Virus genome (UHGV): UHGV-0124609
Reading direction: 5' to 3' (one strand)
Length of the DNA stretch: 14,435 bases
Source of the DNA: a virus
Shown here: piece after piece, positions 645 through 13,813 of the stretch
How positions within the stretch are numbered: the first letter of the stretch is position 1
Layout of the letters: each line of letters opens with the position of its first letter
Notes under the pieces: generated by a model
Told to the model about the DNA's origin: nothing
Seen by the model: the letters and a program-made list of their open reading frames with translations, nothing else
Database searches by the model: none
Position numbers and translations under genes: made by a program

Positions 645-675
645 TTGTTTCTCTCCTCTCGTTTGGTATGGGCTA

Positions 676-705
676 ACTATAATAGCTAACTATTCAGGTT
701 GTCAA
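676..705 (-). promoter_or_regulatory. sigma70-like promoter for the leftward 160-aa gene (TTGACA-N18-TATAGT)
   Basis: On the minus strand, -35 TTGACA is the revcomp of 700-705 and -10 TATAGT the revcomp of 676-681, with an 18-bp spacer; predicted start lies about 25 nt upstream of the ATG at 644. Confidence 0.55.
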
Positions 706-769: not shown

Positions 770-985
770 ATGCAACCATCTGAACTAGGCATCCGTGTAG
801 AGCAACGCCGCAAAGAACTCGGCATCTCTCAACGCCGTCTGGCGGTCCTGGCTGGCGTTTCCCAGGGCGCGATTAATCAGCTGGCGCTCGGTGTAACTCA
901 GGACGTACGCCCGGCAACACTGTTCAAGCTGGCGGAAGTGCTGGAAGTAGACGCCAAGTGGCTGGCGTTCGGTGAAGGGGCTTAA
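770..985 (+). CDS. XRE-family (Cro/CI-type) helix-turn-helix transcriptional regulator, 71 aa
   Basis: ATG 770 with SD AAGGAG at 756-761 (8-nt spacer). Translation contains a classic HTH signature LGISQRRLAVLAGVSQGAINQLALG. It is the only rightward gene in a leftward block, diverging from the 160-aa gene. Confidence 0.85.
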   Translation: MQPSELGIRVEQRRKELGISQRRLAVLAGVSQGAINQLALGVTQDVRPATLFKLAEVLEVDAKWLAFGEGA

Positions 986-3299: not shown

Positions 3300-3533
3300 T
3301 TATTCCAGGTCTTCTAAAGTAGCGGTCATTCCGCGAACTTCAGCGACAGCACTATATTTCCCGCCGACATTTTTCACGACACCGGATTTAACCAACACCT
3401 TCAATGACCCTTCAATGATGGCGGAACTATAGTACTTAAAATAACTGCGGCGCAAGTCGATAACACTGCACGACCCTTTTTTACGTGTTAATGAAACGAC
3501 CGCCGTAAATACGCGTGACTGGAACTCGGTCAT
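3300..3533 (-). CDS. hypothetical small protein (77 aa), possibly winged-helix DNA-binding; translationally coupled to the upstream AlpA-like gene
   Basis: Complete ORF whose start overlaps the stop of the upstream gene by 4 nt (ATGA). The assignment of a winged-helix fold is a weak guess from the pattern SLKVLVKSGVVKNVGGKYSAV. C-terminus …TATLEDLE resembles the primase C-terminus. Confidence 0.7.
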   Translation of the reverse strand: MTEFQSRVFTAVVSLTRKKGSCSVIDLRRSYFKYYSSAIIEGSLKVLVKSGVVKNVGGKYSAVAEVRGMTATLEDLE

Positions 3534-3700
3534 TTCACGTTCTCCTTAATCCACGCTTCCACTTTCTCCGGGTCAAACGTACCTGGCTGCCGGCGGCCCA
3601 TAATGCGGGTACAGCAATCAGGGAACTTCCCGCTCTTTAACCAGTTATTCAGCGTGCGACGAGTAACCCCGATGCGCTCTGCTACTTCATTCTGCGTCAT
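3530..3700 (-). CDS. AlpA-family-like HTH DNA-binding protein (phage transcriptional regulator/excisionase-like), 56 aa
   Basis: Translation MTQNEVAERIGVTRRTLNNWLKSGKFPDCCTRIMGRRQPGTFDPEKVEAWIKENVK matches the AlpA/HTH_17 pattern (HTH, then FP, then a conserved W). ATG at the revcomp of 3698-3700 has SD GAGGG with a 7-nt spacer; the ORF track's longer form starts at TTG 3727 with no SD. Confidence 0.8.
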   Translation of the reverse strand: MTQNEVAERIGVTRRTLNNWLKSGKFPDCCTRIMGRRQPGTFDPEKVEAWIKENVK

Positions 3701-3732
3701 TCTCAAACCCTCATTATCAGTTAACAAAATCG

Positions 3733-3761
3733 AGTATACATTGCGAATAATGGGAAATCAA
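3733..3761 (-). promoter_or_regulatory. sigma70-like promoter for the leftward AlpA/primase operon (TTGATT-N17-TATACT)
   Basis: On the minus strand, -35 TTGATT is the revcomp of 3756-3761 and -10 TATACT the revcomp of 3733-3738, with a 17-bp spacer; about 30 nt upstream of the ATG at 3700. Confidence 0.5.
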
Positions 3762-4041
3762 ACATAATCGCACCTATTGACATTATGAAAATCTTCGTTT
3801 AAGGTGCTTCTATATCTTAGTTACTTTGATTCTTGTTCACCTTGTAAACCCCGCCGAAAACGAGCGCCCAACGCGAAGTGTTAGGCGGCAGTTTACTGAA
3901 CATAAGAATTATCGTAACTTTCCTTCCTTAATATCTCCGGTTGCCCTGGGCAAGCTCTATTCTCATCGGCAGCATATCTCTTAAGTAACTGATTTTCTTA
4001 ATGTACCGTAGATTCACAACCGTAAAAATGTAACCCTTACC

Positions 4042-4065
4042 GGGCAGGCTTAAGGCCTGCCCTTT
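4042..4065 (+). other. stable stem-loop (GGGCAGGC-TTAAG-GCCTGCCC) followed by TTT within the non-coding region; possible terminator of a small transcript or structural element
   Basis: 8-bp perfect GC-rich stem at 4042-4049/4055-4062, 5-nt loop, then TTT at 4063-4065. No plus-strand ORF lies upstream of it. Confidence 0.3.
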
Positions 4066-4134
4066 AGTTACCAAGTAATAAGAATAAAGGCACAACCCTA
4101 CCTGAAGAATCACAACGGCAATGTAACTATTCTC

Positions 4135-4163
4135 TTGCACACCCCAACATAATAGGATACTAT
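4135..4163 (+). promoter_or_regulatory. promoter TTGCAC-N17-TACTAT driving the rightward early small-gene block
   Basis: -35 TTGCAC at 4135-4140, 17-bp spacer, -10 TACTAT at 4158-4163; identical hexamers and spacing recur at 5401-5429. The ATG at 4198 lies about 30 nt downstream. Confidence 0.5.
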
Positions 4164-4197
4164 TCACTTATCGAAACGAGACATAAGGAATTTAGAA

Positions 4198-4416
4198 ATG
4201 AACAAAGCGACCGCAAGCGTAGTTTCCGCAATCAAAGAAGTTTACGGCATCGATATTTCAGAGCGCGTAATCATCGGTAATAAGCGCAACTTCTTTACGT
4301 TCGACACCGACGGAATGGATGAAAATGATTTTATCAACGTACAACGTTTCGCTAATGATAGAGGGCTTCGTAACGAGCCTGCAGGTTACAAGAAATTCGC
4401 TATCTACTTTAAATAA
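4198..4416 (+). CDS. hypothetical protein, 72 aa
   Basis: Complete ORF; ATG 4198 preceded by a purine-rich leader (AACGAGACATAAGGAATTTAGAA); first gene downstream of the 4135-4163 promoter. Confidence 0.8.
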   Translation: MNKATASVVSAIKEVYGIDISERVIIGNKRNFFTFDTDGMDENDFINVQRFANDRGLRNEPAGYKKFAIYFK

Positions 4417-4434
4417 GACAGAGGAGTGATGGTT

Positions 4435-4623
4435 ATGTTTAAGAAGGGTCAGTTGGTCAAAGCTGTAAATAGCAATTATTTCATTGTTGAAAGCGAGTCT
4501 GCAGTTTTTCCGAGGGCTTATAGAGTAAGTTTTATACGGGAAAGATTAGGAGCGGTAACTTGGTTCCGTGAAGATGAGCTAACACTCATCGGCAACAATT
4601 TTAAATTCAAAGGGGCGAAGTGA
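4435..4623 (+). CDS. hypothetical protein, about 62 aa
   Basis: ORF 4426-4623 in the track; ATG 4435 is best placed relative to SD GAGGAG at 4421-4426 (8-nt spacer). Alternative in-frame starts are GTG 4426 and ATG 4429. Confidence 0.75.
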   Translation: MFKKGQLVKAVNSNYFIVESESAVFPRAYRVSFIRERLGAVTWFREDELTLIGNNFKFKGAK

Positions 4624-4877
4624 TGGAAGAATTAATTTGTATTGAATCTGGTCCAGATGTGCGGCATTGGTTTGTAAAAGGTAACAAGTATTCGTCAGGG
4701 GTATATTACGACGGCCGTCGATACGTTTTAGATGAAGACGGTGATGAATGGGACTTAGAGCAATCACATGGTGAAGCCTTTACCGTGAATTTCCTGGGCA
4801 CACCCGCCATAACATTCACAACGGCATCGAATCATGATGCTCGTGCCGATGACTCTGAGGGAGGTTGCCGTGGATAA
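4623..4877 (+). CDS. hypothetical protein, 84 aa
   Basis: ATG 4623 overlaps the upstream TGA stop (TGATG), indicating translational coupling; an AGGGG SD-like lies upstream. Confidence 0.75.
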   Translation: MEELICIESGPDVRHWFVKGNKYSSGVYYDGRRYVLDEDGDEWDLEQSHGEAFTVNFLGTPAITFTTASNHDARADDSEGGCRG

Positions 4878-4899
4878 TATTTTAATGGTGGAGGTTGAT

Positions 4900-5094
4900 A
4901 TGAGCCCGTATAACAAATTTCGCTTACGCCGTCTTGTTGGTGGTCTGCGCGCCGCCGAGTTTGGTGTTGAATGTTGGGAAAAGGCGAAATATACCCCATG
5001 GAAGTCGTGGCATTTGGTTCATGCTAAGGCGGTAGCACAGTACCGTGAGTACAAGTTAAACAGTTTCCTTAAGCACCACGGGGTTGAGTTATGA
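4900..5094 (+). CDS. hypothetical protein, 64 aa
   Basis: ATG 4900 with SD GGTGGAGG at 4887-4894 (5-nt spacer). In-frame alternative starts at GTG 4870 (SD GAGGGAGG), ATG 4885 and ATG 4834 cannot be excluded. Confidence 0.65.
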   Translation: MSPYNKFRLRRLVGGLRAAEFGVECWEKAKYTPWKSWHLVHAKAVAQYREYKLNSFLKHHGVEL

Positions 5095-5252
5095 GAGAAG
5101 CATTTGAACGGTGGGCCGTCGTAGAGGGTCTGCCGGTTAACAAGGGTTCGAAGAAAGAGTACCTGACCGTTAAGACACGTCTTGCGTGGCGGGCGTGGAA
5201 AGCTGGTGTGCAATTTCGTGCTGGTGTAACAGGTGGTGTAACAGGTCAATAG
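5091..5252 (+). CDS. small hypothetical protein, 53 aa (not in the ORF track)
   Basis: ATG 5091 overlaps the upstream stop (ATGA); frame open to TAG at 5250-5252. Translation MREAFERWAVVEGLPVNKGSKKEYLTVKTRLAWRAWKAGVQFRAGVTGGVTGQ; the C-terminal GVTGGVTG comes from a tandem repeat. Confidence 0.5.
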   Translation: MREAFERWAVVEGLPVNKGSKKEYLTVKTRLAWRAWKAGVQFRAGVTGGVTGQ

Positions 5253-5274
5253 GTTACTATTTGTCTTTGTGTCT

Positions 5275-5333
5275 TACGCTGCTACACAGCAGCGTACAAC
5301 TTTAACTTAGTGTCGTCAAAAGGCGACACTTTT
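5275..5333 (+). terminator. pair of stem-loops after the first early-gene block; the second is followed by TTT(T)
   Basis: Hairpin 1: 9-bp perfect stem at 5275-5283/5288-5296 with a 4-nt loop and no U-tract. Hairpin 2: 7-bp stem at 5309-5315/5324-5330 with an 8-nt loop, followed by TTT at 5331-5333. Confidence 0.35.
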
Positions 5334-5400
5334 CACCAAACGCAACAATCGAAGCGACTATTGCAGGAGATGCAACAATACAAACACCAATAAAATTTAC

Positions 5401-5429
5401 TTGCACACTGGGATAGAATAGACTACTAT
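5401..5429 (+). promoter_or_regulatory. promoter TTGCAC-N17-TACTAT with an AT-rich upstream element
   Basis: -35 TTGCAC at 5401-5406, 17-bp spacer, -10 TACTAT at 5424-5429; AT-rich CCAATAAAATTTAC immediately upstream; ATG at 5461 lies 32 nt downstream. Confidence 0.55.
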
Positions 5430-5460
5430 TCATTTACACGAACGAGAGGATAGACAGAAG

Positions 5461-5610
5461 ATGGTTACTTTGATGATTATGGAATTCGAAAACAGCGCTG
5501 CAACTTACCGCGAGATGACTATGGCGCAGGCGTACCATCTGGCATCAAACGGCAGCTTCTACAAGGCTCAAATCATCAATGAGTTCGGGGTAATTGACTA
5601 TGAATTTTAG
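5461..5610 (+). CDS. small hypothetical protein, 49 aa (not in the ORF track)
   Basis: ATG 5461 preceded by the leader AACGAGAGGATAGACAGAAG; frame open to TAG at 5608-5610; its 3' end overlaps the start of the next gene. Confidence 0.55.
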   Translation: MVTLMIMEFENSAATYREMTMAQAYHLASNGSFYKAQIINEFGVIDYEF

Positions 5611-5872
5611 AAGATACACCGTTACCGTTGATTTTGAGGGGCTGGATTTGCCCCTCCCCAACAACTACCGGTATATAACCCGTGACCGTTTCGGGTTTAT
5701 TCAGGGGTGGCGTAACAAGCCGACAGACACTGAGTTCGGGATGTCGGGTGGTGAAGAGTTGCCGATCACGTTCGGGCACCAAAGTAGTAACGAAGAGCTT
5801 AAAACTGTGATTCGTAAGTATCGTCGCCGGGGTAAAACTGAACTTATCGCAATAACAGGCGCTGTTGAATAA
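5600..5872 (+). CDS. hypothetical protein, 90 aa
   Basis: ORF 5594-5872 in the track (TTG); the first ATG is at 5600 with a GGGG SD-like upstream. Confidence 0.75.
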   Translation: MNFRRYTVTVDFEGLDLPLPNNYRYITRDRFGFIQGWRNKPTDTEFGMSGGEELPITFGHQSSNEELKTVIRKYRRRGKTELIAITGAVE

Positions 5873-5891
5873 ACGAGAGGAGAGACGGAAG

Positions 5892-6320
5892 ATGAGTAAC
5901 AAAAACGAAGTATTCGAGTACCTGATTGACCAGCTACGGCAGCAGGTAAATAAGAAAGATGTGACATCTTTCAATGTATCTGTGCAGATATCCGACCTTG
6001 ATGAGGTCAAGCAGGTAGTCCACAACCTACAGCAGCATATCGCAGGTAAGGATGACGAAATACGTGCGCTGAAAGACAGTTTACGGCAGCAGGTAAATAA
6101 CAACCAGTGCGAAGACCTGGCGCATGAGGTGCAGTCACTTAAGAATCAGTTACGTGATGCGTCGGCGCTGGTGGCTGAGTTGCAGAAAGAACTTGATGTC
6201 GCGAATAGCACCGTAGCTCGTTTGAGTAAAGAGGGGGTACAGAGGTGCAACCATGTTTGGTACAGGTACAACTTAGGCGGCTACACTAAGATGTGCCTTA
6301 AATGCGGGCTAAAGAAATGA
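5892..6320 (+). CDS. coiled-coil protein with a C-terminal Cys/His cluster (putative zinc ribbon), 142 aa
   Basis: ATG 5892 preceded by AACGAGAGGAGAGACGGAAG (the track's longer form starts at TTG 5865 inside the previous gene). Translation is heptad-like and Q/L/K/E-rich, with a repeated LRQQVN segment and C-terminal CNHVWYRYNLGGYTKMCLKCG. Confidence 0.8.
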   Translation: MSNKNEVFEYLIDQLRQQVNKKDVTSFNVSVQISDLDEVKQVVHNLQQHIAGKDDEIRALKDSLRQQVNNNQCEDLAHEVQSLKNQLRDASALVAELQKELDVANSTVARLSKEGVQRCNHVWYRYNLGGYTKMCLKCGLKK

Positions 6321-8277: not shown

Positions 8278-8298
8278 TCTATTTTCTGTAATGACTAG

Positions 8299-8328
8299 TT
8301 GACTATTACCTACGACCCTACTATATTT
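8299..8328 (+). promoter_or_regulatory. sigma70-like promoter (TTGACT-N18-TATATT) for the 8361-10328 block
   Basis: -35 TTGACT at 8299-8304, -10 TATATT at 8323-8328; the AACGAGA leader motif at 8339-8345 and ATG 8361 follow. Confidence 0.5.
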
Positions 8329-8360
8329 ACTTCGCCGACAACGAGAACGGGGTAGAGAAG

Positions 8361-9654: not shown

Positions 9655-9887
9655 TTACCAGCATCCCAAACCTGATTAAAGAATACGGCACGATGGCCGA
9701 GACATGCCGACAAACCGGCATCAACGAAATGACGATTGCGAAGTACAGCAAAGACGTGAATTGCGAGCGCCACGTAATTTATAACAACCGTCTTATGACG
9801 CACGTTAAGACAAGTCCGGTGTTATTCACGCGCCGTGGTATCACTAAAACTGAGCAACGCATTGCTAAAGAGGAGAGCGGGGGATGA
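9651..9887 (+). CDS. hypothetical protein with a possible helix-turn-helix segment, 78 aa
   Basis: ATG 9651 coupled to the upstream stop; the track's form starts at GTG 9627. The segment MAETCRQTGINEMTIAKY looks HTH-like; this is a weak inference. Confidence 0.7.
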   Translation: MITSIPNLIKEYGTMAETCRQTGINEMTIAKYSKDVNCERHVIYNNRLMTHVKTSPVLFTRRGITKTEQRIAKEESGG

Positions 9888-10337: not shown

Positions 10338-10362
10338 AGCCCTCTACGGAGGGCTTTTCTGT
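10338..10362 (+). terminator. rho-independent terminator (AAGCCCTC-TACG-GAGGGCTT then TTCT)
   Basis: 8-bp perfect stem at 10338-10345/10350-10357, 4-nt loop, then a T-rich tail. Confidence 0.65.
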
Positions 10363-10389
10363 ACATCCCACCCAATCCACTTATATAAT
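10360..10389 (+). promoter_or_regulatory. candidate promoter for the packaging operon (TGTACA-N18-TATAAT)
   Basis: Consensus -10 TATAAT at 10384-10389; weak -35 TGTACA at 10360-10365. A palindrome follows immediately downstream. Confidence 0.4.
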
Positions 10390-13754: not shown

Positions 13755-13776
13755 AGCCCCGAAAGGGGCTTTCTTA
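13755..13776 (+). terminator. stem-loop AGCCCC-GAAA-GGGGCT followed by a T-rich tail after the portal gene; possible partial terminator or attenuator
   Basis: 6-bp GC stem at 13755-13760/13765-13770 with a GAAA tetraloop, then TTCTTAT. Confidence 0.45.
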
Positions 13777-13813
13777 TAGTATGCTATTAACTTTAGCACC
13801 ACAGGGTTTATCT

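Follow-up and report, generated by a model that had tools for sequence, protein, structure and literature searches.

Sigma-70 promoters overlapped by a conserved palindrome, a candidate operator of a 434 Cro-like protein, in a Kagunavirus-type phage

The DNA analysed here, referred to as the window, is a stretch of 14,435 nucleotides of the virus genome UHGV-0124609. It is affiliated with the lytic siphophages of the Kagunavirus/Jerseyvirus type (Guernseyvirinae, ~43 kb) and shows ~90% identity to Kagunavirus-type Escherichia phages, the Salmonella Jerseyvirus phages being more distant relatives. The window contains two promoters, P4135 and P5401, each of which opens a block of small rightward open reading frames (ORFs), and a gene at 770-985 for a small helix-turn-helix (HTH) protein of the HTH_3 family. 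The subject of this work is a 14-bp palindrome that overlaps both promoters and is also found in the control region of that gene. The features at the two promoters are the following.

4135-4163, plus strand: promoter P4135 (class I, as defined below), with -35 TTGCAC at 4135-4140, a 17-bp spacer and -10 TACTAT at 4158-4163.
5401-5429, plus strand: promoter P5401 (class I), with -35 TTGCAC at 5401-5406, a 17-bp spacer and -10 TACTAT at 5424-5429.
4042-4062, plus strand: intrinsic terminator of 9 pairs (7 G-C) followed by a T-run, which closes the unit 5' of P4135.
5275-5296 and 5309-5330, plus strand: two 9-bp hairpins, the second followed by a U-run, a terminator-like boundary 5' of P5401.
4175-4181, and also 5441-5447, plus strand: leader block AACGAGA, a component of the common promoter-plus-leader cassette.

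Both P4135 and P5401 are genuine host-type (sigma-70) promoters. When hexamers 16 to 18 bp apart and a -10 whose second base is A and whose sixth is T were required, TTGCAC-N17-TACTAT was found twice, each hexamer agreeing with the consensus at four of six positions. Both sites also stand at the head of a transcription unit, with a terminator-like hairpin on the 5' side and a ribosome-binding site plus ATG on the 3' side (4198 and 5461, respectively); the fold of the hairpins at 5275-5330 has an energy of -29.9 kcal/mol (z-score, -5.1). From the position of the hexamers, transcription likely starts at the A at 4170 for P4135 and at the A at 5436 for P5401.

For comparison, four complete genomes were used, namely, those of CR01, Jersey, K1G, and FSL SP-031 (Cornellvirus), together with 75 IMG/VR loci selected as encoding a relative of the HTH_3 protein of the window. 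The orthologues of P4135 are identical in K1G and CR01, and its Jersey counterpart is a depositor-annotated promoter (sigma-70-like in the Jersey record). Orthologues of P5401, sought by anchoring on the downstream DUF7170 gene, were obtained from only 6 loci because the gene downstream varies.

The earlier note on this DNA, made from the letters alone, had described a recurring unit consisting of the -35 hexamer, a 17-bp spacer and an extended -10 that ran into a TCA discriminator. Its positions were right by direct reading: TTGCAC and a 17-bp spacer are followed by TACTATTCAC at 4158-4167 in P4135 and by TACTATTCAT at 5424-5433 in P5401, TACTATTCAC recurs at 733-742 (TACTATTCA being 733-741), and ACTATTC is present at 689-695, where AACTATTCA occupies 688-696, and at 4126-4132. 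Within the window, TTGCAC-N17-TACTATTCA is found exactly at 4135-4166 and 5401-5432, with no further match even when three mismatches are allowed; for this 32-nt pattern at up to three mismatches the chance mean is 0.35, and two matches were reached in 8 of 200 shuffles. A genome-wide count, which the note had proposed as a check, yielded 3 matches in K1G and 5 in CR01 at up to two mismatches (0.02 and 0.07 expected, respectively), numbers that none of 100 shuffles reached. For its part, TACTATTCA taken alone as a 9-mer is weak evidence (6 matches in the window at up to one mismatch versus 2.46 expected), and the ACTATTC at 4126-4132 is indistinguishable from chance, the expectation for a 7-mer being ~1.8 on both strands of 14.4 kb.

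The extended -10 with its discriminator did not hold up as the conserved unit. What is conserved is the two-fold symmetric element AATAG-N4-CTATT, of which TACTATTCA is the right half, while the left arm lies in the spacer of P4135 and P5401. Neither promoter has the TGn of an extended -10 (ggaTACTAT and gacTACTAT, respectively), and the segment from the -10 to the likely start, TCACTT or TCATTT, is A/T-rich, unlike a GC-rich discriminator. The TCA is specific to Kagunavirus, TACTATTAC being present at the equivalent place in Jersey-type phages, with TAC instead of TCA. The palindrome measures 14 bp, or 16 to 18 bp with its flanks (ATAATAG-N4-CTATTCA), and six clear copies are present in the window, starting at 681, 726, 4151, 5248, 5417, and 8294.

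680-695 (core 681-694), no strand: TAATAG-CTAA-CTATTC, in the spacer of a leftward promoter at ~-25 to -12; it includes the ACTATTC at 689-695.
725-740 (core 726-739), no strand: TAATAT-GGTA-CTATTC, with one arm mismatch, over the -10 of the HTH_3 gene.
4150-4165 (core 4151-4164), no strand: operator-like palindrome TAATAG-GATA-CTATTC, at ~-19 to -6 of P4135.
5247-5262 (core 5248-5261), no strand: CAATAG-GTTA-CTATTT, without a promoter of its own, at the end of ORF 5091-5252.
5416-5431 (core 5417-5430), no strand: perfect 16-bp palindrome GAATAG-ACTA-CTATTC, covering the spacer and the -10 of P5401.
8294-8307 (16-bp span 8293-8308), no strand: ACTAG-TTGA-CTATT, with one mismatch, over the -35 of a class III promoter.

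The enrichment of this element is pronounced. In the window, AATAGNNNNCTATTC at up to one mismatch gave 10 strand-matches (6 loci) versus 0.20 expected, a number equalled in none of 200 shuffles. Exact copies of AATAG-N4-CTATT number 4 in the window, 9 in CR01, 6 in K1G, and 4 in Jersey, against expectations of 0.02 to 0.07, and there are none in the complete genome of the Cornellvirus SP-031. All seven sites of the window at up to one mismatch fall within its non-coding DNA, which makes up 12.6% of the sequence, and four of the seven Jersey sites lie in depositor-annotated promoters. In this phage group, each genome has some ten promoters with the palindrome (~9 to 14 predicted operators), among them most of the early and middle promoters of Kagunavirus and Jerseyvirus. 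The copy at 5248, situated 169 bp 5' of that at 5417, keeps its position in Kagunavirus-type loci. A role as a cruciform or in RNA was rejected by reasoning, the arms being just 5 bp long and the element lying 5' of the inferred starts.

Two further observations concern individual copies. The one-mismatch palindrome TATAG-TATG-CTATT at 13775-13788, directly past the terminator of the portal gene (13755-13770), is placed where a leftward gene under a class I promoter has been inserted in CR01, and is possibly a remnant. At the end of ORF 5091-5252, adjoining the promoterless palindrome at 5248-5261 (region 5223-5262), GGTGTAACAGGT stands twice as a 12-bp tandem repeat.

The repeat had been found before in related phages. 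A PHIRE consensus, tgAATAGTa-ccTATTat-T, was reported for the Kagunavirus fBC-Eco01 (PMC9825357), and the PHIRE element TAATAGTACCCTATTATGTT for the Jersey-like phage SGP-C (PMC8790156); the consensus in both papers is the same sequence as the palindrome, with at least 7 copies per genome. Seven PHIRE promoters were also described in phage Golestan, the sequence not being printed in the main text (PMC7203180). The symmetry, the three positions relative to promoters and the link to the HTH gene go unmentioned in these three papers. The seven copies in fBC-Eco01 were ascribed to a phage RNA polymerase (PMC9825357), and TAATAGTACCCTATTATGTT was called a phage-specific regulatory element (PMC8790156). 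That the motif is the promoter of a phage-encoded RNA polymerase or sigma factor is, however, very improbable, given that it is palindromic, is found in either orientation with respect to the gene downstream and always lies within an ordinary -35/-10 frame. No RNA polymerase or sigma factor is annotated in the CR01, Jersey, K1G, and SP-031 records, no exhaustive profile search of all ORFs having been made.

The position of the palindrome relative to the hexamers defines three classes of promoter, in which the -10 starts at an offset of 7, 13 or 28 counted from the start of the palindrome. In class I, TTGCAC-N10-[AATAG-NN-TA-CTATT], the palindrome extends from ~-19 to -6 and the -10 TACTAT is within its right half; P4135, P5401, the HTH_3 gene promoter and extra minus-strand copies in CR01 belong here. 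In class II, TTGACA-N4/5-[AATAG-N4-CTATT]ATAGT, represented by the leftward promoters of the replication region, the entire palindrome with both arms is in the spacer, from ~-25 to -12. In class III it covers the -35, from ~-40 to -27. The window contains one example of each of the latter two.

676-705, minus strand: class II promoter, TTGACA at 705-700, an 18-bp spacer and TATAGT at 681-676, driving the 160-amino-acid gene 644-162.
8293-8327, plus strand: class III promoter, TTGACT at 8299-8304, a 17-bp spacer and TATATT at 8322-8327, agreeing with the consensus at 10 of 12 positions.

The leftward promoter (705 to 676) agrees with the consensus at 11 of 12 positions, is the top promoter-like site of the window and is conserved in all relatives, and the Jersey orthologue of the class III promoter is annotated as a promoter. 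Two promoters without palindrome are also present, one running from 3761 to 3733, which serves an HTH_17 gene and the helicase-primase gene, and the other, TGTACA-N18-TATAAT at 10360-10389, 5' of the terminase genes.

Sigma-70 reads no bases in the promoter spacer, and therefore a symmetric, invariant 10-base signal located there needs another reader. The earlier note had suggested that P4135 and P5401 form one regulatory class under constraint beyond sigma-70 recognition, and both ideas stand. The copies at 733 and 689, which the note had connected with the two promoters, do belong to the same system; both fall within palindromes. As to the copy at 733, there is indeed no matching -35, as had been observed; what was missing was the explanation, a TGn extended -10, aTGgTACTAT, at 730-738. 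Such an element is found only at the HTH_3 gene promoter and is kept in Kagunavirus-type loci, and its TG arises from the sole mismatch of the left arm (AATAT for AATAG) plus the next G.

Regarding orientation, class I and class II have in common an oriented 18-bp core, ATAATAG-N4-CTATTCA, which they use in opposite directions. Read on the other strand, each class I site (4151-4185) bears a weak resemblance to class II, with TCGATA-N17-TATGTT.

The conservation of the element was studied by aligning the region 5' of the HTH_3 gene in 37 distinct Kagunavirus-type sequences, with the gene as the anchor and without use of the motif. The arms AATAG and CTATT are invariant in all 37, while the 4-bp centre takes six forms (CTAA, CGAA, TGAA, CAAA, CTAG, and CGAG) and the 3 to 5 nt between palindrome and -35 are variable, with indels. 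The base preceding the half-site is T or G in Kagunavirus (T/G-AATAG) and always T in the Jersey type (TAATAG). Jersey-type class I promoters keep the palindrome constant with a -35 that varies (TTGACA, TGGCGC, or TGGCAC). In the Cornellvirus type, the AATAG palindrome is absent, and AATAC-N4-CTAAT is found at equal positions of the orthologous promoters. Apart from terminator stems and this weak AATAC-N4-CTAAT, present at 2 to 4 promoters, no other strong palindrome recurs in SP-031.

A comparison of P4135 with P5401 gave the same picture. All 32 positions within the blocks (-35 plus 2, both arms, -10 plus CA, TTA, and AACGAGA) are identical, versus only 2 of the 15 positions between blocks, and therefore the likeness of the two promoters has been kept by selection rather than produced by recent duplication. 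This bears on the alternative that no extra factor is involved, the sites being preferred sigma-70 promoters that resemble each other by descent or through duplication of a promoter-plus-leader cassette. Both hexamers are acceptable as sigma-70 elements, the right-arm bases of class I belong to the -10, and entire cassettes recur, the leader AACGAGA included, with three near-identical extra ones in CR01. However, this alternative, which we consider quite unlikely, would have to accommodate ten specified, two-fold symmetric bases that are constant in the spacer, where sigma-70 does not read them. It would also have to accommodate a palindrome whose position with respect to the hexamers differs between the three promoter classes, a copy at 5248 without any promoter, randomised positions between the blocks, and a Jersey-type -35 that varies beside a constant palindrome.

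The leader itself, AACGAGA(GGAGAGA), is found at 650-663 (minus strand), 4175-4181, 5441-5454, 5872-5885, and 8341-8347, that is, 3' of promoters of all three classes and, in one case, at an internal ribosome-binding site. Most of the block is Shine-Dalgarno region, although AACGAGA is retained even where the Shine-Dalgarno differs (P4135). As a separate signal, the leader AACGAGAGGAGAGA was weak (3 matches versus 0.89 expected) and was discarded.

The candidate reader of the palindrome is encoded beside two of its copies.

770-985, plus strand: 71-amino-acid HTH_3 (XRE-family) protein (Pfam HTH_3, E value of 2e-12).

The best sequence match of this protein in the PDB is phage 434 Cro (E value of 5e-7), which likewise has 71 amino acids. 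Its single-sequence AlphaFold2 model has five helices and a predicted local distance difference test (pLDDT) score of 84, and the top Foldseek match of the model is also 434 Cro (2cro; template modeling [TM] score, 0.73 to 0.79; 40% identity), followed by 434 repressor, SinR, HipB, P22 c2 and restriction-modification controller proteins. The PHROG families to which it belongs are annotated as transcriptional repressor or regulator. All palindrome-bearing loci encode the HTH_3 protein, and the divergent control region of its gene holds two palindromes (681 and 726, 45 bp apart), one at the leftward promoter and the other over its own -10. The recognition helix reads SQGAINQ in 36 of the 37 Kagunavirus-type sequences, the exception being L033 (SQSAINQ). 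By genus, SQGAINQ goes with T/G-AATAG (Kagunavirus), SQSLITH with TAATAG (Jersey), and TQSAISH with AATAC-N4-CTAAT, at very few sites (Cornellvirus type), a pairing which suggests that helix and putative operator change together across genera.

The operators of 434 Cro are 14 bp long, two contacted stretches of 5 bp enclosing 4 uncontacted base pairs, and this layout is that of the palindrome described here. In both systems a single-domain HTH protein of 71 amino acids goes together with 14-bp symmetric sites that have constant outer bases and a variable 4-bp centre, that overlap core promoter elements, and that are also present in the divergent control region of the adjoining regulator gene. 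There are, however, clear differences. The present phage group is described as strictly lytic and has neither a CI partner nor an integrase, and a pair of sites 45 bp apart stands in place of a tandem OR1-OR2-OR3 array. Some 9 to 14 predicted operators are scattered over the genome, whereas those of 434 are grouped in two control regions. The half-site reads AATAG instead of ACAA, and the recognition helix is SQGAINQ instead of QQSIQL. A lambdoid immunity region was not found, the four complete records containing neither a CI repressor with a C-terminal domain nor integration functions, and tandem operators being absent.

Other known systems share part of the arrangement. The P22 c2 and lambdoid systems have the HTH_3 fold and palindromic operators over promoters, and the P22 half-site ATTTAAG has a G three bases from the centre, as here, a likeness that serves only as a lead; the P22 operators are 18 bp long, and the C-terminal oligomerisation and cleavage domain of c2 is missing from the 71-amino-acid protein. 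The controller (C) proteins C.AhdI, C.BclI, and C.Esp1396I, small HTH_3 proteins among the fold matches, act at short palindromes (C-boxes) over promoters. C proteins are dimers that act as timing switches governed by their own concentration once DNA has entered a new cell, but they regulate a single operon, activate as well as repress, and are not regulators of phage early genes. As for sigma-70 promoters, the class I, II, and III hexamers, 17 to 18 bp apart, and the TGgTACTAT of the HTH_3 promoter, without a -35, are of the usual kind, whereas the conservation outside the hexamers is not read by sigma-70.

Taken together, these data point to sigma-70 promoters that are overlapped by operators of the 770-985 Cro-like repressor, a reading to which we assign a rough probability of 50%. 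Its parts differ in strength. The palindrome is very likely a protein-binding operator, and ATAATAGGATACTATTCA is the candidate operator DNA for a dimer of the HTH_3 protein. If it is an operator, the 770-985 protein is rather likely to be its binder, and if that protein binds, binding would very likely repress. Host sigma-70 RNA polymerase would start early in infection at the palindrome-bearing promoters, and the Cro-like protein would be made from a promoter carrying its own operator. On accumulating, the protein would bind the palindromes as a dimer and, because the operators at promoters all lie between ~-40 and -6, it would block RNA polymerase. The outcome would be limitation or shut-off of the early small-gene blocks and of the leftward replication-gene units, together with autoregulation, while the palindrome-free promoters (3761 to 3733 and 10360-10389) would escape. 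Early and middle units would be turned down in this way, a Cro-like shut-off in a phage without a lysogeny module.

Several points weigh against this reading. The recognition helix of the Jersey type differs from that of the window at 4 of 7 positions with the AATAG core unchanged, and the Jersey-type HTH_3 control region has weak sites, namely AATCG-N4-CTATT and a single half-site. The Cornellvirus AATAC-N4-CTAAT shows hardly any symmetry and is based on 2 exact sites. The right arm of class I is in part the -10, so sigma-70 accounts for some of the conservation there. A literature search for Kagunavirus/Jerseyvirus yielded neither mapped transcription starts nor data on operator binding, the sole transcriptome study found containing gene-level data only (PMC12645636), and nothing usable was found on MB78 promoters or on Cro-like regulators of virulent phages. 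Finally, a second HTH protein, HTH_17, has the distribution of the palindrome, being encoded in just these two genera, Kagunavirus and Jerseyvirus, and missing from SP-031, the one complete Cornellvirus genome tested.

The last point leads to the possibility that the palindrome is an operator read by another binder, be it HTH_17 (3530-3727), some other protein of the phage or a factor of the host, which we regard as unlikely, if less so than the alternatives dealt with above. The HTH_17 protein is restricted to Kagunavirus and Jerseyvirus (443 records), as the exact palindrome is, and its identity between window and Jersey is 83%, versus 51% for the HTH_3 protein. Its promoter (3761 to 3733) has no palindrome, so early unregulated synthesis is possible. 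An HTH gene, which may be that of HTH_17, has been reported among four early genes (PMC12645636). However, two Kagunavirus-type loci, L024 and L031, lack HTH_17 yet have palindromes at all the usual places, for which reason this binder was downgraded, and the HTH_17 recognition helix varies in the group (TRRTLNNW, TRQTINNW, and SPMTLNRW) against a constant palindrome. Proteins of the HTH_17/excisionase type are not typical dimeric readers of short palindromes, and we know of no host factor with the consensus AATAG-N4-CTATT. A sequence comparison of the HTH_17 protein with the PDB gave no match. The divergently encoded 160-amino-acid protein was discarded as a binder, being acidic, of low complexity and without a Pfam family.

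In L024 (3624-4209) and L031 (12559-13144), the HTH_17 gene and a 77-amino-acid gene beside the helicase-primase gene are replaced by genes of 149 and 47 amino acids, a replacement pair with which a CxxC...CxxC motif was noted.

The terminator-promoter-leader cassettes could also be seen mainly as recombination joints for small early genes, an idea that is compatible with the operator reading. The early blocks are mosaic, BLAST matches to 3700-6000 being split into 2 to 7 pieces with 45 to 73% query coverage; the gene directly 3' of each promoter differs among relatives, and the extra cassettes of CR01 go with small inserted genes. The arrangement resembles the T4 promoter-early-stem-loop (PeSL), in which a terminator hairpin and an early promoter are repeated at the edges of variable blocks of small early genes, a resemblance only. 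Nevertheless, as the main function of the cassettes it is improbable: at the single junction examined (presence or absence of the gene 4198-4416) there is a 5-bp AGACA microhomology, outside the promoter, and the idea leaves the two-fold symmetry and the three positions unexplained.

The junction in question is that of K1G (L003, 37075-37100), which lacks the first early gene of the window (4198-4416) and has AGACA between the leader and the ribosome-binding site of the next gene, an example of gene gain and loss in the early blocks. In CR01 (L001), the extra class I cassettes are on the minus strand at 83-114, 9833-9864, and 43460-43491 and drive small leftward genes in the structural-gene module.

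The kind of system proposed, Cro-type HTH control of sigma-70 promoters, is already known, and the modest twist is its spread over the genome of a lytic phage. A wider and tentative proposal, which we hold to be doubtful, is that this strictly lytic subfamily relies on a single 434 Cro-like protein, acting at about ten operators in three positions, for the timing of most early and middle transcription, with cassettes that are also joints for gene exchange. If true, this would amount to a genome-wide 'Cro regulon' without lysogeny. When phages of E. coli and Salmonella are isolated for therapy and food biocontrol, those of Kagunavirus and Jerseyvirus are among the most frequent. For them, the analysis provides a testable regulatory map, in which one class of promoters is set out, a 14-bp site is defined and a candidate regulator is named, and would correct the published assignment of the repeat as a promoter of a phage RNA polymerase. 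The result also matters for safety annotation: the 'repressor' gene flagged by pipelines in these genomes looks like a Cro-type lytic regulator and not like a sign of a temperate lifestyle, and the promoters with their operator could become compact regulated parts in phage engineering.

Two minor observations concern the surroundings of the promoters. On the 5' side of P5401 (5341-5378), two copies of GCAACAAT stand on either side of ACTATTGC, an arrangement common to Jersey-type loci. Upstream of P4135, a candidate promoter TTGACA-N17-TAAGGT (3777-3805, plus strand), whose Jersey orthologue is annotated as a promoter, is followed by ~250 nt of non-coding sequence up to the terminator at 4042-4062. 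A scan of the window against Rfam at gathering thresholds matched no RNA family. A stretch within 3777-4072 has an unusually stable fold (-73.3 kcal/mol; z-score, -4.3), a terminator-like hairpin is present on the minus strand at 3887-3865, and the region 3777-4072 may encode a small RNA.

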